A DNA stretch of 64,000 nt from an uncultured Alphaproteobacteria bacterium (GTDB taxonomy: Bacteria > Pseudomonadota > Alphaproteobacteria > CAAHEQ01 > UBA3637), in assembly GCA_944392145.1 (NCBI GenBank), contig CALXVS010000004.1:5833-69832 (forward strand), given 5' to 3'. Within the stretch, counting starts at the first letter, position 1; each line of letters starts with the position of its first letter. Of this stretch, positions 43,135-64,000 are shown piece after piece. Below the pieces are notes generated by a model that was not told the origin of the DNA, made no database searches, and saw only the letters and a list, made by a program, of their open reading frames with translations. The translations under genes were made by a program, and so were the position numbers.

Positions 43135-44358
43135 ATGTATCAAAGAACTTTATCACGTCATCTTGACCGATTAACTAAAAATTTTCCAGTATTATTAATT
43201 ACCGGCCCTCGTCAGGTCGGTAAATCAACGTTATTAGAAACTTATATTTCTGATAAATATAATCGTGTTACATTGGACGATTTGAATGAACGAGCAAAGG
43301 CAATTAATGATCCTGCTTTATTTTTGCAGGAACATCAACCCCCCGTTTTAATCGATGAAGTACAATATGCACCGGAACTTTTTAGTTATATAAAAATATA
43401 TGTTGATCAAAACAGAGATAAAAAAGGATTGTTTTTATTGACCGGTTCACAAAAATTTCATCTTATGAAAGGAATTCAAGAAACTTTGGCAGGTCGAGTA
43501 GCAATACTTGATTTATTGGGGTTGTCCAATCAAGAAATAAACAATCATCCTGATACTGTTCCTTTCCTTCCAACGGATGATTTTATTGATGAACTGAAAA
43601 AACAAAAAAAATCTCAAAGCACATTGCAAACGGTTTATACAAATATTTTTAACGGTTCTTTCCCTGAACTGGTAAGCAGAAACGGTGAAGACAGAGATAT
43701 TTATTACAGTTCTTATGTGAAAACATATATAGACCGAGATGTAAAAGGTTCTTATAATATATCTGACGCTATCAGATTTAATAATTTTATAAAAGCAGTG
43801 GCTGCACGAACTGGTCAATTATTAAACATTGCAGATATTGCCAGAGATGTATCTATTGATAATAAAACGGCCCAATCTTGGTTAAATATTTTAGAAGCTT
43901 CCGGTTTGGTGTATTTATTACATCCTTACTACAATAATATCACTAATCGTATTATAAAAACACCAAAGATTTATTTTTTGGATACAGGGTTATGTGCATA
44001 TTTAACAGGTTGGGATGCTCCAAAATCTCTTGAAGCGGGTGCTATGAGTGGAGCGATACTGGAGACATACGTGTTATCTGAAATACTCAAATCATATTGG
44101 CATAATGCTAAAGAACCAAATATTTATTTTTACAGAGATAAAGATGCTAAAGAAATTGATTTTATCATAGAGGCGAATAATACAATTTATCCGATAGAGG
44201 TAAAGAAAACAATGATGCCTGATTTAAATGCTTATAAAAACTTTAATGTACTTGAAAAACTGCAAAAGCCAATAGCAAAAGGTGTTGTTTTATGTTTAAA
44301 ACAGGAAGTATCTTTTATTTCTAGAGAAATTGTTGCAATACCTATTGCATTTATTTAA
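43135..44358 (+). CDS. AAA+ ATPase with DUF4143-like C-terminal domain
   Basis: Walker A 'GPRQVGKST', Walker B 'VLIDEVQ'. Widespread orphan ATPase family. Confidence 0.6.
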   Translation: MYQRTLSRHLDRLTKNFPVLLITGPRQVGKSTLLETYISDKYNRVTLDDLNERAKAINDPALFLQEHQPPVLIDEVQYAPELFSYIKIYVDQNRDKKGLFLLTGSQKFHLMKGIQETLAGRVAILDLLGLSNQEINNHPDTVPFLPTDDFIDELKKQKKSQSTLQTVYTNIFNGSFPELVSRNGEDRDIYYSSYVKTYIDRDVKGSYNISDAIRFNNFIKAVAARTGQLLNIADIARDVSIDNKTAQSWLNILEASGLVYLLHPYYNNITNRIIKTPKIYFLDTGLCAYLTGWDAPKSLEAGAMSGAILETYVLSEILKSYWHNAKEPNIYFYRDKDAKEIDFIIEANNTIYPIEVKKTMMPDLNAYKNFNVLEKLQKPIAKGVVLCLKQEVSFISREIVAIPIAFI

Positions 44359-44492
44359 GTATCTATCAAACAAAACAAAGCCTCACTTCTCGTGGGGCTT
44401 TTTTGTTATCCAAAACACAAAAAGTAAAGGTTATCAATTTATCCTTTACTTTCTCAAAAAGAAAGTAAAGGTTTTCATTTAAGTGAAAGGAA

Positions 44493-45398
44493 ATGAGAAT
44501 GAAACTATTAAACAAGACCGTTTGGGCAATAACGCCAGAGATGTTGCAGACGATGATGACGATAGCGAGGCAGAACAACAAAAGCCCTGAAGCAGTCGCC
44601 AGTCAAATTGGTAAAGAGATGAAAAACACAAACGCCGTTTCTATCCGAGACGGCGTTGCTGTTATCAGGGTTGCCGGCCCATTGTTCAGGTATGCAAACC
44701 TGTTAACTCGCATTTGTGGTGCAACCTCTTACGAGCTTTTCGCTCAGGACTTTAATAAAGCCCTCAAAGACCCGACAGTTCAAGCCATTTTGCTTGATGT
44801 TGACAGTCCGGGTGGCGAAGTAAACGGCTGTTCGGAAGTTGCCGATATGATTTATAAGGCTCGTGGCACAAAGCCGATTGTCGCTTATGCATCCGGTTAC
44901 TGTTGCTCGGGTGCTTATTGGATCGCCTCAGCCTGTGACAAGATTTATGCAACCGATACGGCCGTCATTGGCTCAATCGGTGTCGTTTCCATTTTTGAAA
45001 AGGATGATGAAAACAAAACCATAGAGATTGTTTCATCGCAAAGTCCGAATAAACGACCCAATGTGGAAACCGAGGAAGGTAAAGCCAAAATTCAAGAACA
45101 CGTTGATGCGTTGGCTGATGTTTTTATCAATAAAGTTGCACTTAACAGGGATATCTCCCCGGAAGAAGTTATCGAAAACTTTGGTGGTGGAGATGTGTTT
45201 GTTGGGCAAAAAGCCGTCACTATCGGTCTGGCGGACGGCTTGTCCTCATTCGAGGAATTAGTGTCAGACCTTAACACAGGGACGTATTACCAGTTAATAG
45301 GCAAAAATGGCAAGAGTAAAAATTGTTTTAGAACAATGGATTTTTCACAAAGTGTAACCCTGGGAACATCAGGTGGGGCTCTGATTGGCTCGGATTAA
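44493..45398 (+). CDS. S49-family serine peptidase (phage prohead protease gpC / SppA-like)
   Basis: '…LLDVDSPGGEV…' and '…GYCCSGAYWIASACDKIYA…' S49 catalytic blocks. Confidence 0.65.
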   Translation: MRMKLLNKTVWAITPEMLQTMMTIARQNNKSPEAVASQIGKEMKNTNAVSIRDGVAVIRVAGPLFRYANLLTRICGATSYELFAQDFNKALKDPTVQAILLDVDSPGGEVNGCSEVADMIYKARGTKPIVAYASGYCCSGAYWIASACDKIYATDTAVIGSIGVVSIFEKDDENKTIEIVSSQSPNKRPNVETEEGKAKIQEHVDALADVFINKVALNRDISPEEVIENFGGGDVFVGQKAVTIGLADGLSSFEELVSDLNTGTYYQLIGKNGKSKNCFRTMDFSQSVTLGTSGGALIGSD

Positions 45399-45402
45399 AA
45401 CA

Positions 45403-45433
45403 GGACGGAAAAGAACAAGATCCGTCCTTTTGT
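45403..45433 (+). terminator. Hairpin AGGACGGA-(12 nt)-TCCGTCCT followed by TTTT
   Basis: Directly after the S49 peptidase stop. Confidence 0.4.
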
Positions 45434-45466
45434 GTATTTATATCGGCCGTTTATGGTATTCGTGCG

Positions 45467-45733
45467 TTGGCAAGATTACTGCAAAACTATCAACGGATCC
45501 ATGGCTTAGATACGCCAAGAAAGATAATCAGCCGATACGCTCCGCCGAGTGAAAACCAAACACAAGCCTACATCCAAAGTGTGGCCGCTCAGCTTGGTAT
45601 CACACCGGATGGTAAAGTTGATTTGACCGAAATCGGTACTTTAACTGTGTTTATCAAGGCCATAATTCGTCATGAAAACGGAATGCAACCTTATTCAAAC
45701 GAAACCATTCAGAAAGGAATTGCTTTGCTATGA
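45467..45733 (+). CDS. Phage-associated protein fragment (88 aa)
   Basis: 'RYAPPSENQTQAYIQSVAAQLGITPDGKVDL…' block. Precedes the lysis-like genes. Identity uncertain. Confidence 0.25.
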   Translation: MARLLQNYQRIHGLDTPRKIISRYAPPSENQTQAYIQSVAAQLGITPDGKVDLTEIGTLTVFIKAIIRHENGMQPYSNETIQKGIALL

Positions 45734-45909
45734 AACGGAAATGGATACCAACAATCGGTTGGATTTTGTGCTACGGGATATTCCACAATTGTGTGGTTGT
45801 CCCGTTTTTTAGTGTCCCAAACGTGGATTGGGAGTATCTGCTGATGGGACTGGGTATTGTGCTTGGCGTAAGCGGAGTACGAGATATTGGGTTAAAGAAA
45901 GGAAAATAA
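45730..45909 (+). CDS. Small two-TM membrane protein (59 aa), holin-like
   Basis: Found manually (below the ORF-track threshold): MKRKWIPTIGWILCYGIFHNCVVVPFF…WEYLLMGLGIVLGVSGV…KKGK. ATGA-coupled to the upstream gene. Confidence 0.3.
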   Translation: MKRKWIPTIGWILCYGIFHNCVVVPFFSVPNVDWEYLLMGLGIVLGVSGVRDIGLKKGK

Positions 45910-46025
45910 ACGAGGTAATTGCTTTATTTTCGAACGGGGTTAGTGAGAAAATTTAGCAATACCGGTTTATTTGCCCGATTCAACAAAAAAAATCTAAACA
46001 CAAGAAAAATGGAAGGGAAACTACA

Positions 46026-46247
46026 ATGTTAGCACTCATAACAACGGCTTGGAATAAAGCAAAGTATTGGATTATAGGTGGTGGTTTGGCAATTTTATAT
46101 TTGCTTGGCTACCAAAAAGGAAAACATAAAGAGCAAGTGAAAGTAATGAAAGGAACGGTGGACAATGTCAAAACGGCTAAAAGAAGTCGGGATAGCCTGG
46201 CTGATCCTGAGCGCGTTAAGCGGTTGCACAACAAATATAAACGGTGA
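46026..46247 (+). CDS. Single-TM protein with highly basic tail (73 aa), holin or i-spanin-like
   Basis: TM 'YWIIGGGLAILYLLGY', then a K/R-rich C-terminus. Confidence 0.35.
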   Translation: MLALITTAWNKAKYWIIGGGLAILYLLGYQKGKHKEQVKVMKGTVDNVKTAKRSRDSLADPERVKRLHNKYKR

Positions 46248-46359
46248 TTTTTGCCTTTTATATGAACCGGTGTATGCAGATTATGAGCACGACACCCCCG
46301 AAACAGTCCGTCAAATTGATAGAAACAATGTGGTTTACGATGATTTATGTAAAAATTAA
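46165..46359 (+). CDS. Small lipoprotein (64 aa) overlapping the previous gene out of frame, o-spanin (Rz1)-like
   Basis: MSKRLKEVGIAWLILSALSGC (lipobox LSGC). Starts inside 46026-46247 in the +1 frame, the embedded/overlapped spanin architecture. Confidence 0.4.
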   Translation: MSKRLKEVGIAWLILSALSGCTTNINGDFCLLYEPVYADYEHDTPETVRQIDRNNVVYDDLCKN

Positions 46360-46456
46360 AAGATTTTGTTTGACTTTTCTTGCAAAAATGGCTCGAATTA
46401 TAGGCAGAGGTGTCATGAACCTCTGTAATCTTAATATTAAGAAAGGAAAATTAAAC

Positions 46457-46729
46457 ATGAATAAAACAGAATTTGTTGAAGCTATTGCTAAAACATCCGG
46501 TTTGACCAAAGCTGATGCTGGTCGTGCTGTTGCCGCCGCCATCGAAGTGGTCACAAAAGCCTTGAAAAAAGGTGATGCAGTTCAAATCACAGGTTTCGGT
46601 ACATTCGGCGTTGCTAAACGCGCCGCTCGTAAAGGCCGCAATCCTGCTACTGGCAAAGAAATTAAGATCGCCGCTTCTAAGGCTCCTAAGTTCAAAGCCG
46701 GTGCAGTTTTGAAAAAAGCTGTAAAGTAA
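46457..46729 (+). CDS. hupB: DNA-binding protein HU (90 aa)
   Basis: MNKTEFVEAIAK…GFGTFGVAKRAARKGRNPATGKEIKIAASKAPKFKAG. RBS AAAGGAAAA. The ORF-track N-extension is spurious. Confidence 0.85.
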   Translation: MNKTEFVEAIAKTSGLTKADAGRAVAAAIEVVTKALKKGDAVQITGFGTFGVAKRAARKGRNPATGKEIKIAASKAPKFKAGAVLKKAVK

Positions 46730-47609: not shown

Positions 47610-48203
47610 ATGCGTAAAAATCAAGTCAGTCGAAATCAAAGGATTCATATTCCCAAAAAAGTGGAAGATGCTTCGGTACAATTAATGTTACCGGTAGATG
47701 TTGCTTCTGTAAAGCAAGCATTTGCAACAGCTAATGACAAACGATTTAAATATGCTGATGCGCTGGATCAAGCAACCAAAGAAGATCCGGAATTGCATCA
47801 AATTTCAACAATTCCAAGCGATTCAAGCGAATTAATTGTTATAACGAAACTTAAAAAACTGGGGGCTTATATTCTAGCCGTGACGGTTAAATCGCCGGCC
47901 AAATTCAGACCTGTTTTTATCAATCGGATGCAAAATTACAGCTTGTCGGCTTTGGAAAATTTATTGAATGCTAATTTTATTCGGATGGATAGCCCCGAAC
48001 ATAAAGCCCAGCGAGAAAAGCATCAAACGGATGCACTCATTCAGTTAAAAATGGTGGCATATGTTGCAATGCTGTCGGAAAATGCAAAGTGTATTTTGAT
48101 GAGGCAGTATAAACAAATATCAATTCAGGTTGGTGAAATTATTAACCTGATTATGGCATGGAAAAAAAGTGATGATAAACAATGGCAAACAAAAAAGTTT
48201 TGA
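47610..48203 (+). CDS. avd: DGR accessory variability determinant (Avd)-like protein with N-terminal extension
   Basis: C-terminal '…DALIQLKMVAYVAMLSENAKCILMRQYKQISIQVGEIINLIMAWKK' aligns with the BPP-1 Avd helices ('DAGLAMLRFWLRFL…QVLIAEVGRILGSWIAR'). Ends 40 bp before TR. Confidence 0.55.
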   Translation: MRKNQVSRNQRIHIPKKVEDASVQLMLPVDVASVKQAFATANDKRFKYADALDQATKEDPELHQISTIPSDSSELIVITKLKKLGAYILAVTVKSPAKFRPVFINRMQNYSLSALENLLNANFIRMDSPEHKAQREKHQTDALIQLKMVAYVAMLSENAKCILMRQYKQISIQVGEIINLIMAWKKSDDKQWQTKKF

Positions 48204-48243
48204 ATCCGAAAGGATCAAAAAAGGGAAAGTTGATAATGCGTAT

Positions 48244-48362
48244 TGTGCCTCTTGGTCCGCGTCTTCAAATGAAAATGAAAACGTGCGTTGCGTCAACTAT
48301 AAGGACGATAAGAACTGGAATAACACGAATAAACGTAAAATCTCGGCGCGCCCCGATTTGCT
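48244..48362 (+). repeat. DGR template repeat (TR), 119 bp
   Basis: Matches 49868-49986 with ~21 mismatches, ~20 of them at TR adenines. 3' GC-rich 'TCTCGGCGCGCCCCG' IMH*-like end. The overlapping ORF 48169-48561 is regarded as spurious. Confidence 0.85.
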
Positions 48363-48610
48363 TTTAAGGAGAACAACAAAATGTGGTCGGCAAAGACACA
48401 GATCTCTGAAACAAGCCAGATATGTGGATTTTAGAAAAAATCCGCCCGTGCTCAAAGCAAAGGAAACTTTCTCTTTTCTAACCGCTGTCAGCTTAATGCT
48501 CAGTGCGGTGGAAGAAGTAAAAATGCAGAGTTTGCGTTTTATGGGGTATCACATATATTGACACATTTTGTTTTAATATATTATCGGGTACCCCTTTTTT
48601 ATCAGAAAAG

Positions 48611-49690
48611 ATGACGATGAAGATTGAAGAGATATTTACATTTGAAAACCTGGTTGCGGCTCATAAAGCGTGTCGGCTGAGCAAGCAACATAAACGGGGA
48701 ACAATCATGTTTGAAATTGAGTTGGGGCGTAATGTCACCAATCTGGTCAAACAATTGACGAATAAAACATATCGTTTAAGTCCTTACAGATCCTTTACCA
48801 TTTATGATCCGAAGAAAAGATTAATTGAGGCTTTGCCTTACAAAGACAGAGTGGTTTTAATGTGCTTTTGTCAGCATTCGGTAGCTCCCCGGCTAGAGAG
48901 ACACCTTATTTATGATAATGCCGCCTCACGCAAAGAAAAAGGGACGCATTTTGCGGTGGATCGATTGCATTCATTTATGCGAAAGCTGTACATCAAAAAC
49001 AAAACAAATCGGATTTATTTTTTGAAATGCGATATCAGGAAATATTTTCAAAGCATCAATCATGAGATTTTACTGGAACAGTTGGCCAAAGTCGGTTTTT
49101 CGGCTGATGAGATGTGGTTTTTAAGGATGATTATTGAATCACACGGCTCTATCGGATTGCCCTTGGGTAATCAGACCAGCCAATGGTTTGCCTTGCTGTA
49201 TTTGAACGGAATGGACCGGCTGATTAAAGAACGCCTGCGTATGCTTTACTATGTGCGCTATATGGATGATTTTGTTATCCTAAGCGAAGATAAATCTAAA
49301 TTACAGTTATGCAAACAACAGATTGATGAATATGTTAAAGGGCTGAAGCTCTCCTTAAATCAAAAGACACAAATCGGGCTGTTATCGGATGGTATAGATT
49401 TTTTGGGATTTAACCACAAATTATCGGCCACCGAAAAGATTATTAAATCTCTGCGCGGATCGGCCAAAAGCCGCCAAAGAAAATACCTGAAAGCTATCCG
49501 TCACTACTATTTGAATGATGTTCTTGATGATGAGTACATAGACGTCCGTTTAGCCTCATATCGCGGGCATTTAAAGGGCACTAAGAACTGGCTACATATC
49601 TGCAACCGCTTGACCTCCTTGAAACACGAGAAACGTCGTACAAAAAAATTGTTGCAGAACAATAAATTGTATGATATACTGGGAGTATAA
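48611..49690 (+). CDS. DGR reverse transcriptase
   Basis: 'IFTFENLVAAHKA', 'YRLSPYRSFTIYDPKKRLIEALPYKDRVV', 'LGNQTSQWFALLYL' (DGR-type SQ motif), 'YVRYMDDFVIL' (YxDD), 'GIDFLGF'. Alignable with Bordetella phage bRT. Confidence 0.9.
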   Translation: MTMKIEEIFTFENLVAAHKACRLSKQHKRGTIMFEIELGRNVTNLVKQLTNKTYRLSPYRSFTIYDPKKRLIEALPYKDRVVLMCFCQHSVAPRLERHLIYDNAASRKEKGTHFAVDRLHSFMRKLYIKNKTNRIYFLKCDIRKYFQSINHEILLEQLAKVGFSADEMWFLRMIIESHGSIGLPLGNQTSQWFALLYLNGMDRLIKERLRMLYYVRYMDDFVILSEDKSKLQLCKQQIDEYVKGLKLSLNQKTQIGLLSDGIDFLGFNHKLSATEKIIKSLRGSAKSRQRKYLKAIRHYYLNDVLDDEYIDVRLASYRGHLKGTKNWLHICNRLTSLKHEKRRTKKLLQNNKLYDILGV

Positions 49691-49709
49691 GCTAAATTAG
49701 GAGGCTCGT

Positions 49710-51659
49710 ATGGGCTTTACGTTTTTGAAGGAAGATCAGATATGGGGCGATGATGCCCTGGATGTAATGAAACGTTATGGTACGAAGGTTGCGCCAACGG
49801 ATCTGACAGTCATATTGGGTGGTTATATGACCGGTGGTGGTGATCGTACTTCTGAAGATGATCTAACTTGTGCCTCTTGGTCCGCGTCTTCGAATGATTA
49901 TGGAGACGTGCGTTGCGTCTACTGTTTGGGCGTCCAGATCTGGAATGACGCGCATAAGCGTACGATCTCGGCGCGCCCCGCTTTGCCTCCATCGGAGGCA
50001 TCTAAAATCAGCCCGAGCGAAGCGAGGGCTATCGCTGGAATCCGCGTAGCGGAATATGGGGAATACCCGCAAACGGTCGCCGATGAGCGCACCAGTGCAA
50101 AATTAGAAAAATTACATGATTCAAGATCTCTCCGTCCGACCGGAAAAAATTACACATTTGATTCAGTTGATTTAGGCGATTATGGCACGTCTTTTAAGGC
50201 CACATCCTATCAGGAATATGAAATGGATGGCAAAAGGTATATCCGTGTTCCTGGACGGCCTGCTGACGGCGATAGCAAGCTATCTACAGGTGAACAGGTA
50301 GAAGAAGGAAAGCCATACTGGGTTGAGGTCCAACCGATAGAATGGCTGATGGATAGAAGCGGCACAATGGTCGCCAAAAAATGCTTATTCGCCGGTATTC
50401 AATTTGATACGAAAGATTCATATGATGGCGGCTTTTCCAAAACGTCCATAAAGCACTATTTGGACACTTATTTTGCCAAAGAAATGGAGCCGACCGGACG
50501 TGTGGCCGCAAGAACGGTATCAAGAGACTATGAAGAAGAGCCGGAAAGAAAAGAACCCGTTAAAAAGAAAGAACCGACAGCCAGACAGAAGAAATACGGG
50601 ATCGAGGTATCTGATGAGCCTATGCCCGTCAAAGACCAAATAAACTTCTATATTCAAAACGGAATGAGCTTCATGCTCCATGGCCCGTCCGGTGTCGGTA
50701 AATCACAACGTGTGAAAGAAATTGATCCGGATTTGACCTCAATTACACTGTGTAACGGAATTTTGCCTGAAGATGTTATCGGTAAAACAATCTATCCAAA
50801 CGGCGTGGGAGCCGATGGGGCCTCCGGTGGTGTTTGGGTGCCGCCTAAGTGGTACACGGATTTGTGCAGAAAATGCGAAACAGAACCGGACAAACAGCAC
50901 GTCTTATTTATCGATGAAGTGACCAATGCGCGTGAAACAACACAAAGTTTGATCTATCACGTAGCGTTGGAAAAATCAATTGCCCAGGGCGTTGGCAAAC
51001 TGCCTAATAATGCTGTGGTCGTGTTGGCCGGTAACAGCAAGGAAGAATCAGGAGCCGCTTATAACATGCCGGCCCCGTTGTTCAGACGTTTAAGCCATAT
51101 TTACTTGGACTTGAATATTCAGGATTGGTTGGAATGGGGCTCGGAACACAGCAAGAGCCATCCGGAAGATCCGGATCGCTTAAACATCCATCCGTTAGTC
51201 GCCAGTTTTGTGGCAACCTACGGACGGCAAGTGTTCTATTCCGAGTATGATGAAGAAAACCCCGGTAAGTTTGCTCTTGACCCACGAAAATGGGAAAAGG
51301 TATCAGATAAAATCTATGCCAATAAGGGTGTGATGCGCCGTGAGATTTTGGAAGCTGATATCGGGCCTGAATTGGCGGCCAGTTTATTGTCATATGCTAA
51401 AAATCCGCCGCTATCTTTGGAAGAAGTGATTGAGGGCGAATATACCCGCGAGGATATTCCTACGGGACAGGATGCCCGTTTGGCGTTGGCGTTGAGTTTG
51501 CGTCATGCAACACCGAAACAAGTCGGAAAAGTACGTCAATTTGTTGAAACACAGTTAGGCGCAGAAAATCGTGCGATTTTTGACTCTGTTTGGGTGGGCA
51601 AGGATGATACACGCGCCATGCAGATCGCCACTCTACATAACTTAAAGGGAGGAAGATAA
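49710..51659 (+). CDS. DGR target protein: N-terminal variable region fused to a MoxR-like AAA+ ATPase (649 aa)
   Basis: Strong RBS AGGAGG. VR encodes aa ~53-92 ('CASWSASSNDYGDVRCVYCLGVQIWNDAHKRTISARP'). Walker A 'GPSGVGKS' and Walker B 'VLFIDEV' further downstream. Confidence 0.75.
   Translation: MGFTFLKEDQIWGDDALDVMKRYGTKVAPTDLTVILGGYMTGGGDRTSEDDLTCASWSASSNDYGDVRCVYCLGVQIWNDAHKRTISARPALPPSEASKISPSEARAIAGIRVAEYGEYPQTVADERTSAKLEKLHDSRSLRPTGKNYTFDSVDLGDYGTSFKATSYQEYEMDGKRYIRVPGRPADGDSKLSTGEQVEEGKPYWVEVQPIEWLMDRSGTMVAKKCLFAGIQFDTKDSYDGGFSKTSIKHYLDTYFAKEMEPTGRVAARTVSRDYEEEPERKEPVKKKEPTARQKKYGIEVSDEPMPVKDQINFYIQNGMSFMLHGPSGVGKSQRVKEIDPDLTSITLCNGILPEDVIGKTIYPNGVGADGASGGVWVPPKWYTDLCRKCETEPDKQHVLFIDEVTNARETTQSLIYHVALEKSIAQGVGKLPNNAVVVLAGNSKEESGAAYNMPAPLFRRLSHIYLDLNIQDWLEWGSEHSKSHPEDPDRLNIHPLVASFVATYGRQVFYSEYDEENPGKFALDPRKWEKVSDKIYANKGVMRREILEADIGPELAASLLSYAKNPPLSLEEVIEGEYTREDIPTGQDARLALALSLRHATPKQVGKVRQFVETQLGAENRAIFDSVWVGKDDTRAMQIATLHNLKGGR
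49868..49986 (+). repeat. DGR variable repeat (VR) with IMH at the 3' end
   Basis: 119-bp partner of TR. In frame in the target gene. GC-rich 'TCTCGGCGCGCCCCGC' terminus differs from TR by one base. Confidence 0.85.
49985..49999 (+). promoter_or_regulatory. GC-rich hairpin (GCCTCC-atc-GGAGGC) immediately 3' of the VR
   Basis: Equivalent position and shape to the hairpin/cruciform element that enhances DGR retrohoming in Bordetella phage. Confidence 0.5.
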
Positions 51660-54014: not shown

Positions 54015-56046
54015 TTAATATAAATTAGCCTCAAAAATTTGATAAAGGTCAAATTCTATACCGTCAACGCCTCTGATGAGGTCTATTTCGTCTTCGGCGG
54101 CGACATCAATTCGGGCCTGATCCAAAAACAAGCCTTCTTCTTTTTTGCGGAGTTGTTTTTCCATTTCGTTGATTTGCTTTTGAATTTTAAGTTCTTCTAA
54201 GCGGTCTTTGGCACTACCGATACTTTCTTTAATTTTTGATGTTTCTTGGCGTAAGGATTCAAGAGTTTGTTCTAATACGGCTTTTTGACGAGATGAACGC
54301 ATTTTGATAATATCAATATCCGTATTAAAAGCACCTTCTTGTTGTTTGATATAGTTGTTTTTCAACTCATCTTCTAAGAATACTGGCAACCTGTCAGAAA
54401 ACGAACTGTTTGCTAGCCAATAAGAGCGTTCTCTATCCTTATTTTCAACAGATTTAATTGGCTGTGATAAAATTTTGACACATTCTTCTTGGGTTAAAAT
54501 CTTGTCATCTTCTGTTTTGCCGGTTAAAACATCATAATTTTTAAGAAACTTTCCCTTTCGGCGTAATTCAACATTATACATACTGATTTGGCAAGATTCA
54601 ATGCTTGTTTCAAGCTGTATTTCGCCCTCTGTAGCACACTCAATTTCACTAAAAATTCCCTTAGCTAAAATAGAAGTTAAGGTAATTCTTCCGCTTGCCG
54701 GTTTAAAATCTTTGGTCATGCCATACTGACGTTTTCCCGTATAAGGTGTGTTTCTTGTCCCGGTCCAATAATAGAACATATGTGGCAATTCACAATCATC
54801 CGGTAAAGTTAATGTTTGATTGATATCATCAATAATATATTGAGGATGATGCTTTTCAAAATAAAACTTCACAACCTCCCATAAGTCCCGATTGAGAAAT
54901 TCTGCCTGTTCTTGAATATATTGAGGTGAGACCTGTATTTTTTCGGCCACATCCTTTGTAAATGTCGTAAATAAAACACTTTCGGCATCCGAAACAACTT
55001 GTGCGTTGGCATCTTTATTTATCTCTAAATTCTGTGCAAAATCCCGTTGAATATCGGGCAAGGTTCGGCGTTTTTGCAAAACTGCTTCCAATGTTTCATC
55101 AAAGTTGCCCACCATATCATCCGACATCCCGAAAATACCCTGAAATTGTAAAGTTCGTTTGTTAATCAATTCCAAAATACGCACATCAGACATATTTTCC
55201 TGACTGAGCAAATTGATAACCAACACATCGGATTGTTGCCCTTGACGGTGGCAACGACAAATTCGTTGTTCCATCTCAACGGCATTATAAAGTAAATCAT
55301 AGTTCGCGACAACCGGACAGTATTCTATGTCTAAACCTTTGGCAGTTGCATCGTTTGTGATGAGAATTTGAATATTTTTATCTTCTCTAAAAATCCTCAA
55401 AGCATTATCATCTGTGTGTTTTATAACTGAATAATGTCCCTTCAATAACTTTGATAAAACGGATATCCTGCTCCTGATTGATGATATTTTCAGCCTTTTT
55501 AAAAGCGTCAATGTTGATAATCATAATTTCAATGTTGCTGGAAGTCGCAAAAGCCCGAACATCTGACAGTTTTGCCGAATTATAGATAAAATATCTGTAA
55601 GGCACGCTGTCATATTGATTTTTAAAGTGTTCTTCGGTGATTTGGAAGGATTTATTCACACCTTCACGAATAGCAATACTTGGCACAACAATGATAAACT
55701 TTGTAAAGCCGTAACGTTTATTGAGTTCCAAAATTGTTTTTGTGTAAACATAGGTTTTACCGGTTCCGGTTTCCATTTCAATAGAAATAGGCAAGGCTTT
55801 GCCGGATTCAATATCTGTTTGAGGCAAAGATTGACCTTTTTGAATATTTTTCAAATTAGAAACAAGCGTTTCCTTATCAAGCAGAAGTTTGTTACCAAAA
55901 CCAAAATCATTTTGCAATAAACTAAATTGAGCCGAATTATCAACGATAGAAAAAGTTGTTCCGGCTTTTTCTTGTCCTTTGAATAAATCAGCAACAGCAT
56001 TAACTGCCTTTTCTTGAAATTCCTGTTTCTTAAATTTTAGTTTCAT
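54015..56046 (-). pseudogene. Type III restriction enzyme Res subunit (SF2 helicase-nuclease), frameshifted/internally deleted
   Basis: N-part ORF 55408-56046 carries Walker A 'METGTGKTYVY'. C-part ORF 54015-55511 begins with helicase motif 'ILITNDATAKGLDI' and 'QRICRCHRQG'. The two ORFs overlap out of frame at 55408-55511. Combined length is short for Res. Confidence 0.55.
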
Positions 56047-56995
56047 TGCTATCGCCTATTGCTTCTTTGTTTTTATCAGAAACATCTATTGTATTAGGAT
56101 GAGATTGGTATGGGCTAGAAAATACATTACCTATTTGTGTCATAGCTCCTTGAGCTTGAGCGGCACCAATCTTTTGATGTATGTATTTCACTCTATCTAA
56201 ATTCACATAATCTTGCATATTTCTATATACCGAAGTCTTCATATTATCTTTTAATATTCTTTTCTCAAGAATTTTATATTCATCTTTTAAAATACTAATT
56301 TTCGCATTATTGCATACAACATCTTGATTTTCTATTGTTGTTTTTTCGGGAATATTAACGATTTCAGCTTCAAAATTGTAGCAAACTTGTTCGTTTGCTG
56401 ATGTTAAGTAGTCTATTGTACAATCAAAATTTAAAATTGTTTGATTGTTCTTATCCAACTCTTCCCAAAGTTTATCTCTTTGTTCTGTATTATGCATTCT
56501 TACGATAATTTCTTCATTTCCTCTTAATAAATTTACAAAATTTGAGAAATGATCTTCTATTTTTGCATCTGAACTTGTCTTTAATATTGTTTTTATATCT
56601 AATTTTACCGAATGTATATCTTTTTTGCTTTCATTTTTTATAGAAAATAAGCGATTATTTTGGATATTTCTTTTTTCATTATCATCAAAAAAATCAAAAC
56701 CATCTTTATCAGATGAAACGAGTAATACTCTATCTCGAATATTAAAAAGAATAAGTTCCTCAATAATTCCAAAAAAACTTCCCATTTTAATGGTAGGCTT
56801 AATGATTACCATATTATTACGTCTATTTTGATACTCTTTATCTTTCTCATACAGTTCAACAGTCTTTTTATTTGTGTACCAAACCGCTATAAATGTTACT
56901 ATAGCAGTTAATACACCAGCAAATATAGTTGCACCAAACATCCACCAGTCTGTTATGGCTTCCATTATTATTTCTGTTTCTTGGGTATCCATCAT
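56030..56995 (-). CDS. Hypothetical membrane-anchored protein (321 aa) between mod and res
   Basis: One N-terminal TM (WWMFGATIFAGVLTAIVTFIAVWY). K/N/E-rich. No motif. Confidence 0.3.
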   Translation of the reverse strand: MMDTQETEIIMEAITDWWMFGATIFAGVLTAIVTFIAVWYTNKKTVELYEKDKEYQNRRNNMVIIKPTIKMGSFFGIIEELILFNIRDRVLLVSSDKDGFDFFDDNEKRNIQNNRLFSIKNESKKDIHSVKLDIKTILKTSSDAKIEDHFSNFVNLLRGNEEIIVRMHNTEQRDKLWEELDKNNQTILNFDCTIDYLTSANEQVCYNFEAEIVNIPEKTTIENQDVVCNNAKISILKDEYKILEKRILKDNMKTSVYRNMQDYVNLDRVKYIHQKIGAAQAQGAMTQIGNVFSSPYQSHPNTIDVSDKNKEAIGDSNETKI

Positions 56996-57004
56996 TCAAA
57001 TCCT

Positions 57005-57703
57005 CTACAACAACTCAATCTCAATGCCTTTGTCTTTACTGATATAATAGGCGTTGGAAAGGGCGACATCGTCCTTAAAGGCTTCTTCGGCGGCGACGAT
57101 TTTGGCTGGTGTCAAATCGCACATAGCCGTAATATCTTCCGGTGTAATACCTCCGTTAGAACCATCCAAGCATACGAGAACAAGTCCGTCTTCGCCAATG
57201 GAATAGACTTTACGGCCGTTAATGTCAATCGGGGCTACCTTGTATGTAACGGGAATACCCAATTTTAACATCACTTCATACACCACGTCCAATTCCGAAC
57301 GGTCAAATTTCAAGCTTTTAATCATAGTATCAAAGCGTTCTTTCAAGGCATTTGCATCGTCAGTCGGTGTATCATCCCATTTGACGAGGTTGGAGGTATC
57401 CAACTTCAATGTTTTGAAACCGGTATCAACTTCGGGATGTTCGGCTTTAATCTTAGCTCCGGCACGGAGGATACGTTCTTTGCCGATTTCGCAAATGTTT
57501 TTGTATCCGGCTTTAAAGGCTTCTGATTTCTCGTCTGTTACTTCCGGCAGTTGTACCATAATGAATTGACGTTTTCCGCCATCTTCAGCATTTAATTGCA
57601 TAACGGCATGAGCCGTAGTTGCAGAGCCAGAGAAAAAGTCGAGGATGATATCGTCATCTTTATCTGTTGCTATTTGTAGCATTTCTTTTATATATGGTAT
57701 TGG
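57005..57703 (-). pseudogene. Type III Mod (N6-adenine methyltransferase) C-terminal fragment
   Basis: '…[36 protein letters not shown]…' (motif I region of beta-class MTases). The ORF-track N-terminus (57707-57898) is antisense read-through of the groEL fragment. Confidence 0.6.
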
Positions 57704-57704
57704 T

Positions 57705-58247
57705 TTAGCTAAGTTATCCGGCGGCGTAGCCGTTATTAAAGTCGGTGGAGCAACTGAAGTTGAAGTCAAAGAAAAGAAAGATCGTATTGATGATGCTTTA
57801 CATGCAACACGTGCTGCTGTTAAAGAAGGTGTTGTTGTTGGTGGTGGTGTTGCTTTATTGTATGCAACACGTGCATTAGAAGACTTAAAACCAGCCAATG
57901 ATGACCAACGTGTTGGTGTTGATATTATTCGTCGAGCAATTCAGGCTCCATTGCGTCAAATCGTTTCAAACGCGGGTGAGGATGGCGCTGTTGTCGTTGG
58001 AAAACTGTTGGAAAAATATGATACCAATATGGGTTATGATGCTCAAAAGGATGAGTATACAAATATGTTTGACGCAGGTATTGTTGACCCGACTAAAGTG
58101 GTTAGAACAGCTTTAGAAGGCGCATCTTCTGTCGCTAGCTTGCTAATTACAACAGAAGCTATGGTGGGTGATAAGCCGGAAGATGAATGTTCTTGTGGTA
58201 AAAATGCTGCCGCAGGTGGCATGCCAGGTATGGGTGGTATGTACTAA
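57705..58247 (+). pseudogene. groEL: groEL 3' fragment (C-terminal ~180 codons of chaperonin GroEL)
   Basis: '[52 protein letters not shown]…' to the GGM-rich tail. Homology starts abruptly at ~57705 with no N-terminal part. Confidence 0.7.
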
Positions 58248-58270
58248 TAAGCTCCGCTATCCTTGGTTTA

Positions 58271-58300
58271 AAAAAGCTCTTCGAAAGAAGAGCTTTTTTT
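58271..58300 (+). terminator. Rho-independent terminator after the groEL fragment (AAAGCTCTTC-gaaa-GAAGAGCTTT + T-run)
   Basis: Perfect 10-bp stem, T7 tail. Confidence 0.55.
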
Positions 58301-58511
58301 ATTTCTTTACAAGATAAATATATTTTTTTCTTTTAAAATGAATAAAAGAATGTTAAGTTTTTAAAAAAGGATAAATTTGTTAGGATGGCCAGCATGTTTT
58401 CTTTTATAAAAAATTTACTTATTATAAGATTAAATAACTTTTTAACAAAATAATGGTTGACGACTTTTTTTTATAAATTAAAAATAAAATATGAATTTTA
58501 TAAATTATATT

Positions 58512-58561
58512 CAAGGAGTTTGTTAATGATTACCCCCCCCATGCAAATCACGAAACAATAA
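58512..58561 (+). promoter_or_regulatory. RBS (AAGGAG) + 11-codon mini-ORF (58526-58561) containing a C8 homopolymer (58533-58540) upstream of the Cys-rich gene
   Basis: ATGATTACCCCCCCCATGCAAATCACGAAACAATAA. A -1 change in the C tract fuses this ATG in frame with the downstream ORF. Confidence 0.4.
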
Positions 58562-58619
58562 TATCAATACTCGCAAAAGTTTAAAAAAATCTTTTTTTTC
58601 CTTTCAATCAGGTCGGAGC

Positions 58620-61139
58620 ATGATAGAGATGCTGGGAGTACTGGTTATTGTAGGTGTATTGAGCGTAGCGGCATTATTTGGATTTACCTATGCGATGAAC
58701 AAGTATAAAGCGAACGAGACGATTCATGATGTGATGTTACGTGCTTCGAATGTCCCGATGATAGATGAGTATTATCAGATACGACCGACAAATTATGCAT
58801 TTAAATTTCCGGATTTACAGGATGAGTTGTCTTCTATGGGGTATACGATGAAGACATTAAAGACGGATGAATTTGGGTATGTGTATAAGGTGGAAGCCCC
58901 TTCGGTGCCGAGACGGATATGCAGTTTAATTTTACAGATGGAACCGACGGACATAGATGAGATCCGGATAGGGACGGAGAAGATATTATATACGGCGGGA
59001 CATTCAGAGCTATGTGAAGAGTACAAGGATAGTTCAACGGAAAGCACGATGATGACCTTTTACTTTGAACGGGGTTGTGAGACGAATGCGGACTGTAGTA
59101 AGTGTCAAGAATGTTATCAAGGTCGTTGTAAAGCGAACTATGATTTACCGGGATGTGGAGAACCTGTAGAATGTAATGGAGATGATGATTGTCCGGATGG
59201 TTTATGTTGTCGTGATGGTTCTTGTACGACGAATTGTGGTATAGAAACATGTGATCCACCTTGTGATGAGTGTCACACATGTGATGAGAGTTTGCGTCAA
59301 TGTATTAAGAATACTTGTTCTATAGAGAGTTGTCCTGAGGGGCAAGAAGCGAGTGGCTATGATAAGTGTGGATGTATAGAAGGCTGTATAGAGAAGTGTC
59401 CAGATTTGAAGTGTAATGAGGAATGCACAGTCCCGAATTACGACACCTGTAGTTGTGAGGCGGATTCGGATCCCTGTTGTGGGTTCGAAGGAGCTGCGTT
59501 GACTTGCTGTCTAGGAGGATTGAGTTGCACGGAGCCGTGTCAAGAGGCGAATTACGAGAGTTGTACCTGTGAACCGAAGGTTTGTACATTAGAATGTAAA
59601 GAAGGGGAAGAAGCGACGGGGTATGATAGTTGTGGCTGTCCGACGGGTTGTTCTCGTCCGTGTACAGATGATTGGGAGTGTAATGGGTTTTGTTCAGTTT
59701 GTGAGGGAGGATATTGTGTAGATAAGACGGAGCAACAAGATATATCGGAATGTTGTGATGGTAGTTCATACACGAGTTGTTGTCCGTTAAATGGGAATAA
59801 TTGTGGTTGTACGCCCAATACATGTGCTTTAGTTGTTTCAGAGATACCGGTTGGTCAAGAGGCCTGTTATGAGAATGTTCCTGAAGGAGGAGAGATATGT
59901 GGTGAAGTCTGTTCTGGAGGGTATAAGAAGAAAGCGTGTCCGAGTGGGGATCATTGTCCTGAAGGAGAACGAGAGATAGGGCGAGATGAATGTGGATGCC
60001 CCTATTGTGAACCATGTCCTGATGGTGAATTTTCTTGTGGGACGGAATGTTGTAATGCTGCTAGCGAAACTTGTTGTGGAGGGAGTATTTGTTGTCCGGT
60101 AGGGCATGCCTGTTGTGAAGGGGTATGTTGTGGAGAGGGGCAAACTTGTGGAAATAATGGTGTTTGTTGTTCTCCTTGTGAATTGACATGTTTAGGACAA
60201 GGCTTAGAATTAGACGCTTGTGGGTGTCCGACTATTTGCGGTTGTGATGATGAAAAACAATGTCGTGCAAATGAAATCACTGAAGATGACAATATTGACT
60301 GTTGTGAATTTGTAGGCGGTGTTTACCATGATAACCATTGTTGTTCAACAGATCTTCCTTATTGGTCTGACGAAGAAAAAAAATGTGTAAAATGTTTAAT
60401 TGATCAGCATTGTCAAGAACGGAAGGATGGAAAAATAAGGTGTAATCAAGAAACAAAAATATGTGAATGTCCGGAAGATAAACCTTATTTTTCAGGAGAA
60501 AAATGTGTCGAATGCTTAAATAATGCAAATTGTTCAGATAGAACGGACGGAAAAACGCAATGTGATACAGAAACTTATACTTGTATTTCTGGTTGTATTT
60601 CTTTAGGAGAAACATGTGAAAAAGACAATGGAGAAGGTGGCCTTTGTGTTAAGGAGAGCAATTCTTCTTCTACACTTGTTTGTTGTTCAGTTGATAAAAT
60701 GGTTGTGAAACTTAATGGCATCGGATGTCCAGCTTCTCCACCAAATCAATATAAAGAATGTTGCGAGGATGGTAAAGTTTATCGTCCTAAATCAGTTGGA
60801 ACTGGTTGCTGTCGTTCTCCTAATGTTTGGATGTCGTCTGTTTCTTCTCTTTCTTTTTCCTCTAAACACTGTGATATTCCTCTTCCAGATGAGTATTTGA
60901 TGAGATCATGTTGTTGCCCTGGTCTAAATTATATTTGTTCTGAAACAGGAGATTGTGTAAAGATAGATGAAGTGGATGATATCGGAGAATGTACAGAAAT
61001 ATGTACAAGGACTGATAAGTTGTATAAAGTTTGTTGTAAAGGTGGAACGCCGACACAAACAGCAGGTGGATGGTATAGCTGTCCAGGATGTGAATGTACG
61101 GAAGCTTTATTGCCGGAAACTTGCTCCTTTGGTGGTTAA
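58620..61139 (+). CDS. Giant cysteine-rich protein (839 aa from first ATG) with type IV pilin-like N-terminal helix
   Basis: '(GRS)MIEMLGVLVIVGVLSVAALFGFTYAMNKYKANETI' homologous to the N-terminus of the 28193 protein. ~120 Cys (~15 %) in CxxC, CC and CxC arrays. AGA/AGG/ATA-rich codon usage unlike the core genes. In-frame upstream extension to 58530 lacks a canonical start. Confidence 0.6.
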   Translation: MIEMLGVLVIVGVLSVAALFGFTYAMNKYKANETIHDVMLRASNVPMIDEYYQIRPTNYAFKFPDLQDELSSMGYTMKTLKTDEFGYVYKVEAPSVPRRICSLILQMEPTDIDEIRIGTEKILYTAGHSELCEEYKDSSTESTMMTFYFERGCETNADCSKCQECYQGRCKANYDLPGCGEPVECNGDDDCPDGLCCRDGSCTTNCGIETCDPPCDECHTCDESLRQCIKNTCSIESCPEGQEASGYDKCGCIEGCIEKCPDLKCNEECTVPNYDTCSCEADSDPCCGFEGAALTCCLGGLSCTEPCQEANYESCTCEPKVCTLECKEGEEATGYDSCGCPTGCSRPCTDDWECNGFCSVCEGGYCVDKTEQQDISECCDGSSYTSCCPLNGNNCGCTPNTCALVVSEIPVGQEACYENVPEGGEICGEVCSGGYKKKACPSGDHCPEGEREIGRDECGCPYCEPCPDGEFSCGTECCNAASETCCGGSICCPVGHACCEGVCCGEGQTCGNNGVCCSPCELTCLGQGLELDACGCPTICGCDDEKQCRANEITEDDNIDCCEFVGGVYHDNHCCSTDLPYWSDEEKKCVKCLIDQHCQERKDGKIRCNQETKICECPEDKPYFSGEKCVECLNNANCSDRTDGKTQCDTETYTCISGCISLGETCEKDNGEGGLCVKESNSSSTLVCCSVDKMVVKLNGIGCPASPPNQYKECCEDGKVYRPKSVGTGCCRSPNVWMSSVSSLSFSSKHCDIPLPDEYLMRSCCCPGLNYICSETGDCVKIDEVDDIGECTEICTRTDKLYKVCCKGGTPTQTAGGWYSCPGCECTEALLPETCSFGG

Positions 61140-61297
61140 AAGGTGTTTTATCTTGCTATCTATCGTAAGGGAGACTCTCAATGAAAAGTTTTATTTTCAA
61201 AAATGAAATTTTCTGGAAGTGTTTTTTAGGACAAACTAGTTTCTAGTTTTGTTCAGATAATTAAAACTTTGTTCTTGTGTGTTTTAAGGTAAACTTT

Positions 61298-62095
61298 CTA
61301 TTTTTCAACAGATTTTTTTGAAATTAATGTAGAATAAATAGTAGCTTGTTGGTTGTCTTTTTTATCATAAGTAGAACAAGAGTTTTCTTTTAATAGTTGT
61401 AAAATCTCAGGATCTTGAGGCATATATTGGCCTGTTTTTAAATCTAATCTATTTTGGTAAAGATGCATTGCTTGTTCAGAAGAACGAGCACCTCCATTGA
61501 TTAAGGCTTTTATTGTATGTTTATCTCCATAACGAGCCGCATGCATTAAAAGAGAAGTGCCGTTAGTGTCCGTTTCATTTACATCAGCTCCTTTTTTTAT
61601 AAGAGTTTCAAGAATTGGCGTTAACTCAGGTTTACCATGTGCGGCAATAATAGCTAAGTACAAAGGGGATTGGTTCATATGATTTTTTTTATTAGCTTGT
61701 GCGCCAACATTCAACAATGTTTCAACAAGCTGTGATTTTCCATTCAACACTGCTGCTGTCAGGAGTGTTTGTCCCCACCCATTCTTAATGTCATTTAGTC
61801 CGGGAGCTGTTAGATGTTCTTTTTCAATATGGTGTATAGGAATATTTTTCACGCCGTGATCTGTAAGTATTTGATATTGCCATTGATCTAAAGGAAATGT
61901 CGGTTGATTGAAGAAATCAATTCCATCAAAAGATTGAACTAGTTTTGTTTTTTCGGATTGTTTTTCCGCCGCCTGAGCTGTTTGTGTTTCTAAAGAAAGG
62001 GCCGCAGCTCCAATTAGAATCGTTTTTTTTAATACATCTTTTAAGGACATATTTCCCTCCTTCTCATAGTATAACACAAATAAAAGTATTTTCAA
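61298..62095 (-). CDS. Secreted ankyrin-repeat protein (265 aa)
   Basis: Signal peptide (…AAALSLETQTAQA). ANK units ('GQTLLTAAVLNGKSQLVETLLNVGAQAN', 'GTSLLMHAARYGDKHTIKALINGGA'). Confidence 0.6.
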   Translation of the reverse strand: MKILLFVLYYEKEGNMSLKDVLKKTILIGAAALSLETQTAQAAEKQSEKTKLVQSFDGIDFFNQPTFPLDQWQYQILTDHGVKNIPIHHIEKEHLTAPGLNDIKNGWGQTLLTAAVLNGKSQLVETLLNVGAQANKKNHMNQSPLYLAIIAAHGKPELTPILETLIKKGADVNETDTNGTSLLMHAARYGDKHTIKALINGGARSSEQAMHLYQNRLDLKTGQYMPQDPEILQLLKENSCSTYDKKDNQQATIYSTLISKKSVEK

Positions 62096-62259
62096 ATAGT
62101 TTTTTCATATTTTATGAAAAAACTAAAAGAGGAGATGAAACTGAATATGAATTTTTATTTGATATGAAAAAAGAAGGAGAGGTTTTTTCTTTGATGTCAA
62201 GTTCTATAAAAAAATCAGGTGTTGATAGGTTTTACTGATGTTGTCAATTGATTTTTTTC

Positions 62260-63396
62260 TTAAAAAATATGTTGTTCTTTAGGTGTATCAAAGACAATAC
62301 TTTCAAATAAATTTTTTATTTCATCAGCCGCATTAGCAGCATTTGATACATTATCCCATAAAGTTTCAGGTATTTTTCCTTTGTTTTCATATATAAAGAG
62401 CTTACGATATATGTTATCACCATGTATAATCAATTTATTATCTTCATCCATTTTGGTTAGATTTTCTTTACTAAACAACCACAATCTTTCAGAAAAATAC
62501 TGACCTGATTTACTTGTAAAATCGTACTTAACACCTCCTTGCGTACCTCTTGCCCAGCAGGCTAACATTCTATAATCGCCACGAGGATCATTGTCTGGAT
62601 TTTTATAGGCTTTTTTAGTTTCGTCATCTAATTCAAGAAAATTTGTATTAAAATAATCTTTTGATTTTGAATAGAGAACTAAATATTCGTGAGCTTTACT
62701 AAACCATCTTGCTGAATTATCGCGTCCTCTTTTTCTTTTCCAAACTATTTGTGCTACAAAATTTTCTTCTCCGAAAACCTCATCACAAATACGACGAAGA
62801 TTCGTCACCTCATTATCATCAATGCTGATAAAAATCACACCATCATCACGAAGTAAGTTAGAGGCTAAACGCAAGCGAGGATACATCATATTCAACCAGT
62901 TGGTATGATATCTGCCCATTGTTTCGGGATTTAATTTTGTTGTTTGACTTGTAATTTCTTTATATTTTGCCATTGGGTCCTTAAAATCATCTTCATAAAC
63001 AAAATCATTACCGGTATTATACGGTGGATCAATGTAAATCATCTTAACTTTGCGATAATAGGCTGTTTGTAAAAGTTTCAAAACTTCCAAATTGTCGCCT
63101 TCAATATACAGATTATTGGTGTTTTCAAAATCAACGCTTTCCTCCGGACAAGGACGGAGTGTTCCGGTTGAACGCTTACCTGCAATCCGATAGCATTCAG
63201 ATTTGCCTTTCCATTCAAATTTATACTTTTCAAAGTCGTTGTCTATATATTCGCCACATAAAGACAAAAGTTTATCAATATCCAAATTACCCTCGGTAAA
63301 ACACTCAGGAAAAACCGTTTTCAACTTTTCCTTGTTTACGCCCGTCACATCAAAGCTTTTGCCGTCCATTTTTTGAATTTGAATATCGTCTGCCAT
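62260..63396 (-). pseudogene. Type III Mod methyltransferase N-terminal fragment (378 aa)
   Basis: 'IYIDPPYNTGNDFVYEDDF' (motif IV DPPY) … ends '…IVFDTPKEQHIF*' where the KP…LI region and motif I should follow. Confidence 0.65.
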
Positions 63397-63854
63397 GAAA
63401 ACACCTCATTTATCAGCATAAAATTATAATCCGTCATATTTTAATGACTTCTACCTAAAATTGCAAGAAAATAGTCATTTTTTCAAAAAAAATGAAAATC
63501 TCTTTATATGCTCCAAACACCATGTGTGTAAGTTATAAAAAATTTAAACTCCTTATAAAATAAGGCTTTTAGAGGTATGTGTAAATTGTGGTATCAGTTT
63601 TTGGGTTTCTAAACCAACCAGTGCTTGGCAAGATTCGGAAAGTTAATGTCATACCATTACAATCAATTATTCAAAAACAATAACTTACGGTCAAGTGGCT
63701 CTGGCGAAAAAATCACATTGCACAAGGTATATATATTCGGGCAAAAGTATATATCAATTTGGAAAAATCTCGGCAACCACATCGATTTTGGTATAAAATC
63801 ACTTTTTAACAGTTGGCTGTCCTAGGGCTTTGCAGGGGATTTAGATAATAAAAA

Positions 63855-63881
63855 AAGCGAAAGTATAAACTTCCGCTTTTT
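63855..63881 (+). terminator. Hairpin AGCGAAAGT-ataa-ACTTCCGCT + TTTTT
   Basis: 9-bp stem with one mismatch, T-run. Confidence 0.35.
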
Positions 63882-64000
63882 GATATTGGTCGGCGACATC
63901 TAGGGAAAATCCCTACTTTGATACAGCCTCGTTTTCATTTAGATGAATTATAGCGATATAACGCTGAAAACACTAGGGCTTTCTCAATTTTTACAAACCA

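Follow-up and report, generated by a model that had tools for sequence, protein, structure and literature searches.

Inactivation of mod abolishes both activities of a type III restriction-modification (R-M) system. Double illegitimate recombination has reportedly been described by Hulter and Wackernagel in 2008 and by Harms et al. in 2016. In bacteria, annealing at microhomologies with integration during replication has been shown experimentally in Acinetobacter, as double illegitimate recombination (DIR) and its short-patch form (SPDIR) (bioRxiv 10.1101/2023.11.22.568220). The locus described here lies in a 64,000-nt stretch of DNA from an uncultured Alphaproteobacteria bacterium (contig CALXVS010000004.1, hereafter the window). 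It holds a type III mod gene that is interrupted by several kilobases of other DNA, with a copy of the pentamer TTTAG on each side. Intact alleles of this gene and a native locus of the inserted genes were both recovered. The insert appears to be a contiguous piece of the conserved groES-groEL-(Cys-rich protein)-ank chromosomal block of the same alphaproteobacterial lineage, where ank encodes an ankyrin-repeat protein, and it probably entered mod through a short pre-existing homology and not as a mobile element.

The split mod gene and its empty site

Positions refer to the window, and intact alleles on three contigs (L007, L008 and L009) and the Mod proteins P0122, P0128, P0129 and P0130 served as comparison. 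The gene and its junctions consist of the following parts.

57005..57708, minus strand: mod 3' fragment, from PIPYIKEML through DFFSGSATT (motif I) to the C-terminus (Pfam; 80-90% nt identity to L007/L009)
57704..57708, plus strand: left TTTAG copy, common to the mod target and native groEL (codons R-L-A, cgT TTA Gct); the G at 57703 is shared too, which gives a 6-bp microhomology
62278..62282, plus strand: right TTTAG copy, common to the mod target and the native donor (upstream of ank)
62278..63396, minus strand: mod 5' fragment, codons 1-373, with the DPPY motif IV and without the S-adenosylmethionine-binding motif I (Pfam; 91-96% nt identity to intact mod in L007/L009)

The order on the minus strand is mod 5' (63396-62278), unrelated DNA (62277-57709), mod 3' (57708-57005), a 321-aa gene and res codons 1-194. 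The DNA between the two TTTAG copies measures 4,569 bp (57709-62277), or 4,574 bp with one TTTAG. In the open reading frame (ORF) at 62260-63396, the final five codons and the stop are derived from the insert, and mod homology stops at 62278. Removal of 57709-62282 in silico gives an open Mod frame of 605 codons, of which residues 1-462, across the junction, are 96-98% identical to intact Mods. The Pfam domain N6_N4_Mtase (PF01555) is split accordingly: the N fragment covers profile positions 1-133, and 166-206 fall to the C fragment. IDPPYN (motif IV) lies in the N fragment and DFFSGSATT (motif I, FxGxG) in the C fragment, which is the motif order of a type III Mod.

The 90%-identity cluster of the Mod N fragment holds intact Mods of 768-782 aa (P0122, P0129 and P0130) together with P0128. 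At the DNA level, L007, L008 and L009 align to window positions 57445-57708 and 62278-63893, and the two alignments overlap by exactly 5 bp, TTTAG. Each of these intact alleles has one TTTAG, precisely at the split point, as an empty site of a microhomology insertion should. Because the overlap is exactly the TTTAG of the intact gene, the observation of a gene split by insertion is correct. The first-pass annotation, made from the sequence alone, had described mod as cleanly split and its junctions as restoring the frame. Both statements hold: alignment of the flanks to the intact mod of relatives gives a true empty site in all three alleles, the restored frame is open, and P0122, P0128, P0129 and P0130 read identically across the split point.

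The intact Mods P0122, P0129 and P0130 (L007-L009) hold a DUF559 (Vsr-like endonuclease) domain of ~155 aa in their C-terminal part, which the window Mod C-part (57005-57420) does not have. A further mod allele, that of P0128 (498 aa), is unbroken at TTTAG and diverges after ...YKNICEI. This divergence suggests a second, independent disruption of mod.

The junction recurs beyond the window. Seven contigs carry the ORF of the groEL fragment and 12 the exact ank protein, with several samples and assemblers represented, and the same 8-kb structure is present in contigs of differing samples and assemblers (L001/L006, L002 and L005). Among the contigs examined at the DNA level, the junction of the mod N-part with the insert was found in L001, L002, L005, L006 and L039-L043; L044 ends ~36 bp short of it. 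L039-L044 represent a structural variant that shares the window sequence from 59570 onward with ~99.5% identity (L039-L043 through the right junction, L041 to 63476). To the left of 59570 they carry unrelated DNA with terminase (GpA) fragments. The insertion is older than the variant strains, because L039-L043 share the right junction at this identity. Of the date of the acquisition, which had been called recent, it can only be said that it came before at least two structural variants with 99.5% identity between them. Some copies among L039-L044 also differ by ~220 bp at 60277/60278.

The inserted segment and its native counterpart

The insert carries the following features.

57709..62277, plus strand: inserted segment of 4,569 bp, read as a copy of the chromosomal groEL'-CysRich-ank block (comparison with L045 and related loci)
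57708..58247, plus strand: groEL 3' fragment, the last 179 of 551 codons, promoterless (Pfam Cpn60, positions 332-489/490; 96% aa identity to the GroEL of L016)
58270..58300, plus strand: groEL terminator hairpin, AAAAAAGCTCTTC-GAAA-GAAGAGCTTTTTTT, read from the sequence
58620..61139, plus strand: gene for an 839-aa Cys-rich protein with a hydrophobic pilin-like N-terminus; its native place is directly downstream of groEL
61298..62050, minus strand: ank, which encodes a 250-aa ankyrin-repeat protein bearing a signal-like stretch at its N-terminus; it runs towards the Cys-rich gene, and the two are convergent in native loci too (Pfam, with the ankyrin repeats assigned to a 265-aa protein)

This is the content given by the first-pass annotation, namely a promoterless groEL 3' fragment with its terminator, a Cys-rich gene and an ankyrin gene, with neither a transposase nor terminal inverted repeats.

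The native synteny was reached through a homologue search with the ankyrin protein, and a contig scan with ank gave two native loci (L022 and L023). The order in L016-L021 is groES, groEL (551 aa), a Cys-rich pilin-like protein of 641-657 aa, a 101-aa ORF and convergent ank. In L013-L015 and L022, the ank side runs on into Ank229, Amidase_2, RuvC and YebC. L045 carries on a single contig an NTP-transferase gene, groES, groEL, a Cys-rich gene (542 aa), convergent ank, Ank229, Amidase_2, RuvC and YebC. Two related lineages, that of L016-L021 and that of L045, thus have groES, groEL, the Cys-rich gene and convergent ank as their native arrangement. The gene order and orientation of the insert are the same as those of this stretch of conserved chromosome.

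Homology between the window and L045 begins at 57703 and ends at 62282, so that it spans both TTTAG copies and stops where mod resumes. L045 has TTTAG at both borders of the segment (3018-3022 and 6470-6474), which is the donor motif that a microhomology insertion calls for. The left border lies inside groEL and reads gaa gaa cgT TTA Gct aag tta tcc (E-E-R-L-A-K-L-S), which matches the window from GTTTAG for >120 nt. The right border in L045 and L022 is aatatgttgttcTTTAGcaaatatg, with gttgttc/TTTAG/caaat upstream of ank in L045. The three parties can thus be compared directly: the intact mod target has tggTTTAGgtg, the left donor border acgTTTAGcta and the right donor border ttcTTTAGcaa. Homology at the junctions is 5-6 bp only. 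TTTAG occurs at ~0.9/kb per strand, which gives a chance of ~1e-6 that both donor borders carry it. More distant relatives have TTTGG or GTTGG at the left border and CTACAG at the right. The motif therefore belongs to the closest donor lineage and is no conserved site. With TTTAG at both borders in L045, and at the right border in L022, the apparent repeat around the insert is therefore a pre-existing microhomology of donor and target. The repeat had been taken for a target-site duplication; TTTAG was present beforehand in the target and at both donor borders, so no duplication is required.

Over its 545 nt, the groEL part differs from the native groEL of L045 by 10 substitutions and one 9-bp indel. 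The ank gene is 97.2-97.7% identical to that of L045, and the spacer between the Cys-rich gene and ank 98.7-99.4%. The middle of the Cys-rich gene differs from L045, as it does throughout this hypervariable family. With ~98% identity in groEL and 97.2-97.7% in ank, the donor would be of conspecific grade. The window and the native loci have no housekeeping gene in common by which the species of host and donor might be compared. The groEL fragment is alphaproteobacterial, and proteins of the host region cluster with those of metagenome-assembled genomes labelled "Alphaproteobacteria bacterium". The idea that host-interaction cargo had been acquired was overstated, since the genes carried are neighbours of groEL in the lineage itself, present here in a second copy with 97-98% identity to native loci.

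The homologue search with the GroEL fragment gave only short or partial proteins and missed full-length GroELs, with a best non-self match of 88% aa identity. A scan of Joint Genome Institute (JGI) metagenomes with a 16-residue GroEL peptide gave no match. Exact-protein look-up found no native copy with an identical Cys-rich or ank protein, and returned contigs of the insert context only. All 12 contigs with the exact ank protein have the same mod-insert context, and those long enough (L039-L043) share the mod junction. L003 and L004 were considered as the donor lineage and were rejected.

The Cys-rich family has ~100 members with a conserved N-terminus and hypervariable Cys-rich bodies. Window 58403-61337 covers the Cys-rich gene with ~220 bp upstream and 200 bp downstream, and its flanks are 97-99% identical to a copy at L010 7771-10526 (also in L011). 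The L010 copy belongs to another genome, where it sits between rpsM and adk in the ribosomal-protein operon; behind it comes what is left of the 3' part of another Cys-rich gene (L010 10527-10886). The family resembles recombining cassettes beside highly expressed housekeeping genes. Just 5' of the Cys-rich gene, window 58526-58620 contains a short ORF, MITPPMQITKQ*, with a C8 tract (58533-58540; C6AC6 in L010), and A7 and T8 tracts come after it. Read in frame, the bases ahead of the ATG give ...QSGRS/MIEML, like a prepilin leader that has no start codon. Slipped-strand phase variation at this 5' region is possible. Ankyrin-repeat proteins, both signal-bearing and other, also recur in the retrieved loci, often by core genes (L007 3291-3779, L012 50-1132, L013 3818-4507 and L018 6845-7525).

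Routes of insertion

Given the empty site, the donor-type locus with TTTAG at both borders and the absence of element features, the best explanation is probably a single microhomology-mediated illegitimate insertion, either by a template switch during replication or by double illegitimate recombination of a conspecific fragment. The copied segment, ~4.57 kb, would start in mid-groEL, take in the Cys-rich gene and end 230 bp upstream of ank, and its entry into mod would have destroyed the mod gene. At the beginning of this process, a nascent strand ending in (G)TTTAG would leave the mod template and pair with the identical motif in groEL. The donor would then be copied until the second TTTAG is made, after which the strand would re-pair with the original mod motif and go on. 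Such a copy-choice route is the simplest one and would account for all the features: it would lose no target bases, and would leave an apparent 5-bp direct repeat and arbitrary donor end points. In a variant of this process, a linear or single-stranded conspecific fragment would be integrated by double illegitimate recombination at the same microhomology. We infer the strand-switch route, as well as the source of the donor, be it the strain's own groEL locus or incoming DNA of a close relative. Other illegitimate scars at the locus give supporting context, namely a deletion that joins res to an SNF2-like gene (described below) and the 59570 breakpoint in the variant strains.

Several points weigh against this explanation. 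A template-switch excursion of 4.6 kb is rare, as is a kilobase-scale double illegitimate integration with zero target loss, and neither was directly observed. The host strain's own groEL locus is not among the retrieved loci. The contigs assemble straight through the insert, which suggests that the same genome at present lacks an identical second copy. The same pentamer stands at both junctions, as a sequence-specific enzyme would also yield, and a second rearrangement border falls at the sole other TTGGTTTAG of the window.

Within the microhomology class, a resident donor is somewhat more plausible than an incoming one. An exogenous donor would be a linear fragment of ~4.6 kb from a close relative, brought in by transformation, transduction or a gene transfer agent (GTA) and integrated by double illegitimate recombination; this course is possible, if unlikely. 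RcGTA-type agents of Alphaproteobacteria have a headful of ~4-4.5 kb. The 4.57-kb size of the insert is close to this, and it is the only feature suggestive of a GTA. The nearest native loci are 97-98% and not 100% identical to the insert, which would suit an outside source, as would the single copy in which the insert appears to assemble. Extracellular DNA also raises such events in Acinetobacter (bioRxiv 10.1101/2023.11.22.568220), and the distribution of GTAs is among the matters reviewed in PMC10883770. However, a fragment fully homologous to the recipient groEL-ank locus would normally recombine there, and it is more parsimonious for a strand to leave one template position and come back to it than for two independent end-joinings to fall on the same 5 bp. 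Neither competence genes nor GTA genes were identified, though none was specifically examined, and the phage remnants of the window (a lambda-like portal and an S49 protease) are not RcGTA-like.

A TTTAG-specific enzyme that cut out or copied a TTTAG-bounded segment and set it beside a TTTAG target is an improbable alternative. It could be an IS200/IS605-type single-strand HUH transposase acting in trans, or a staggered-cutting nuclease followed by ligation. The pattern TTTAG/...TTTAG/ formally fits an insertion of the IS200/IS605 type, in that the target pentamer flanks the left side and also forms the final bases on the right ("peel-and-paste"); microhomology explains the pattern equally. 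In the window, the 9-mer TTGGTTTAG is found at two places only, 57700-57708 (plus strand) and 63609-63617 (minus strand), against an expected 0.8. As an inverted pair they bracket the mod promoter and N-part, in intact loci too. The insertion went in at one of them. The other coincides exactly with the right border of a deletion of 137 bp upstream of mod in the variant L041 (63477-63613), which ends in CTAAA/CCAAC, the reverse complement of this second copy. The match was noticed post hoc and is regarded as a coincidence, but it keeps a sequence-specific activity as a rival of low probability. Nevertheless, the insert ends offer no subterminal hairpins for guidance, the scanned parts of the window hold no gene for an HUH transposase or TnpB, the six internal TTTAGs of the insert were unused, and the other breakpoints at the locus are without TTTAG. 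The broader proposal, that TTTAG or TTGG^TTTAG is the motif of a sequence-specific strand-transfer or nuclease activity that moves motif-bounded chromosomal segments and makes deletions there, is quite improbable. It would resemble a hairpin-less IS200/IS605 peel-and-paste acting on non-element DNA.

That a non-autonomous transposable element was mobilised in trans and made a 5-bp target-site duplication is very improbable. The perfect 5-bp direct repeat and the lack of target loss would fit it. The nearest transposase-like ORF is a solitary IS3-family OrfA remnant (HTH_Tnp_1, 96 aa), without OrfB, at L001 12043-12333, ~20 bp past the window end and ~650 bp upstream of the mod start; the insert junctions are not connected with it. 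The transposable-element explanation is already contradicted by the donor-border sequences, where the pentamer pre-exists and nothing need be duplicated. Both ends of the insert are internal to the conserved block, the left one in groEL codons and the right one in an intergenic region, and both continue as chromosome in L045. The only ORFs of the insert are the groEL fragment, the Cys-rich protein and the ankyrin protein, so no transposase is present. The insert has no terminal inverted repeats, and DNA folds of both ends on both strands gave no hairpins (z -0.3 to -0.7). Other copies of the insert ends had been envisaged in the genome; within the 64-kb window, which was the scope searched, both ends are unique, and all retrieved contigs represent a single insertion event. 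The first-pass annotation had also pointed to trans-mobilised cargo or an uncharacterised mechanism. This does not fit ends that are arbitrary points of syntenic chromosome, of which one falls midway through a run of groEL codons. Judged by these features, the insert appears to be neither a mobile element nor the product of a new element or insertion mechanism.

Further origins were considered and rejected. Integron origin, prompted by a resemblance to GTTRRRY seen by eye, fails for want of attC and an integrase, and IS91 origin, prompted by a GTTC-target resemblance also seen by eye, for want of IS91 ends; in both cases the donor sequence is chromosome without a break. For mod and groEL to have undergone a reciprocal exchange or an inversion, more steps would be needed, and groEL, which is essential, would be destroyed. 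Finally, a chimeric misjoin of a mod contig with a groEL contig, conceivable because the window comes from metagenome-assembled data (though overlaps on the scale of TTTAG alone could not cause misjoins), is refuted by the identical 8-kb structure in L001/L006, L002 and L005 across samples and assemblers and by the recurrence of the right junction in five more contigs of another structural variant (L039-L043), and deserves practically no credence.

Decay of the locus and comparison with known systems

Next to the mod 3' fragment, the window carries the following features.

56030..56995, minus strand: 321-aa gene, conserved between mod and res in L009 (319 aa there)
55466..56046, minus strand: res 5' fragment, codons 1-194 (Pfam ResIII; 98% aa identity to residues 1-194 of the L007 Res)
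54015..55465, minus strand: 3' part of a gene for an SNF2-like helicase, joined to res through a deletion of 6,139 bp as compared with L009

Intact relatives have the operon partner of a type III system, with a Res of 813 aa in L009 and 1047 aa in L007 that carries ResIII and RE_endonuc. The best NCBIfam match of the L009 Res is the type III endonuclease model, at 355 bits, which is below the equivalog cut-off of 564 bits. The gene order in L009 is mod, the 319-aa gene, res, NUDIX, an oxidoreductase (Pfam DAO, faint), a DNA glycosylase, gmk and SNF2. Relative to L009, a clean deletion of 6,139 bp in the window (L009 4450-10588) joins res codon 194 to about codon 372 of the SNF2-like (DISARM DrmD-like) helicase in the same orientation. 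The joint has no microhomology. Taken together, the breakpoints indicate that the region keeps being rearranged by events without long homology.

Other parts of the window are of separate interest. A diversity-generating retroelement at 47610-50005 consists of a bAvd-like gene (47610-48203), a template repeat (48243-48361) and a reverse transcriptase (48611-49690). Its variable repeat (49868-49986) lies near the start of a 649-aa ORF (49710-51659), and this 5'-end position is unusual. The mismatches between template and variable repeat are all on template adenines. Prophage debris at 41750-46729 includes fragments of a resolvase (N-terminal) and of a lambda-type portal (C-terminal), along with a DUF4143 ATPase, an S49 protease and an HU-like protein.

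The event is known in kind, and this instance is unusually completely documented, as a natural kilobase-scale illegitimate insertion of which the empty target, the donor-type locus and the product have all been recovered. It illustrates that an insertion may be flanked by a perfect 5-bp direct repeat that is no target-site duplication. In uncultured, presumably gut-dwelling bacteria, chromosomal segments of several genes can be duplicated, and defence genes inactivated, by microhomology-mediated events.

As an R-M locus, the region is a type III mod-res pair in decay. Its intact relatives have a beta-class N6_N4 methylase (DPPY before FxGxG) followed by a ResIII/RE_endonuc gene. Compared with a typical type III system, the locus has the additional 321-aa gene between mod and res, and its intact alleles have DUF559 in Mod; in the window, mod is split and res is truncated by the deletion into the neighbouring SNF2 gene.

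The Tn3 family and the IS2 group likewise leave a 5-bp direct repeat around a gene-disrupting insertion. The present insert differs from them in having no transposase, no inverted-repeat ends and no other copies, and its repeat is already found at both borders of the donor locus. Members of IS200/IS605 insert 3' of a specific pentanucleotide, with no true duplication and no terminal inverted repeats, a pattern with which the present one is formally compatible. However, subterminal hairpins, TnpA and TnpB are absent from the present locus, and the supposed element is continuous housekeeping chromosome in native loci.

A close likeness is to SPDIR/DIR and to template switching (copy-choice, similar to microhomology-mediated break-induced replication). 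These share with the mod insertion a (micro)homology of 3-8 bp at both junctions and the lack of recombinase sites and element ends, and their donor may be intragenomic or extragenomic. Experimental SPDIR patches measure 3 to ~100 bp, in contrast to the 4.57 kb inserted here. At this locus, one pentamer serves both junctions at a single target position, and no target base was lost or gained. The mod insertion is also seen as a fixed natural allele and not as a laboratory measurement.

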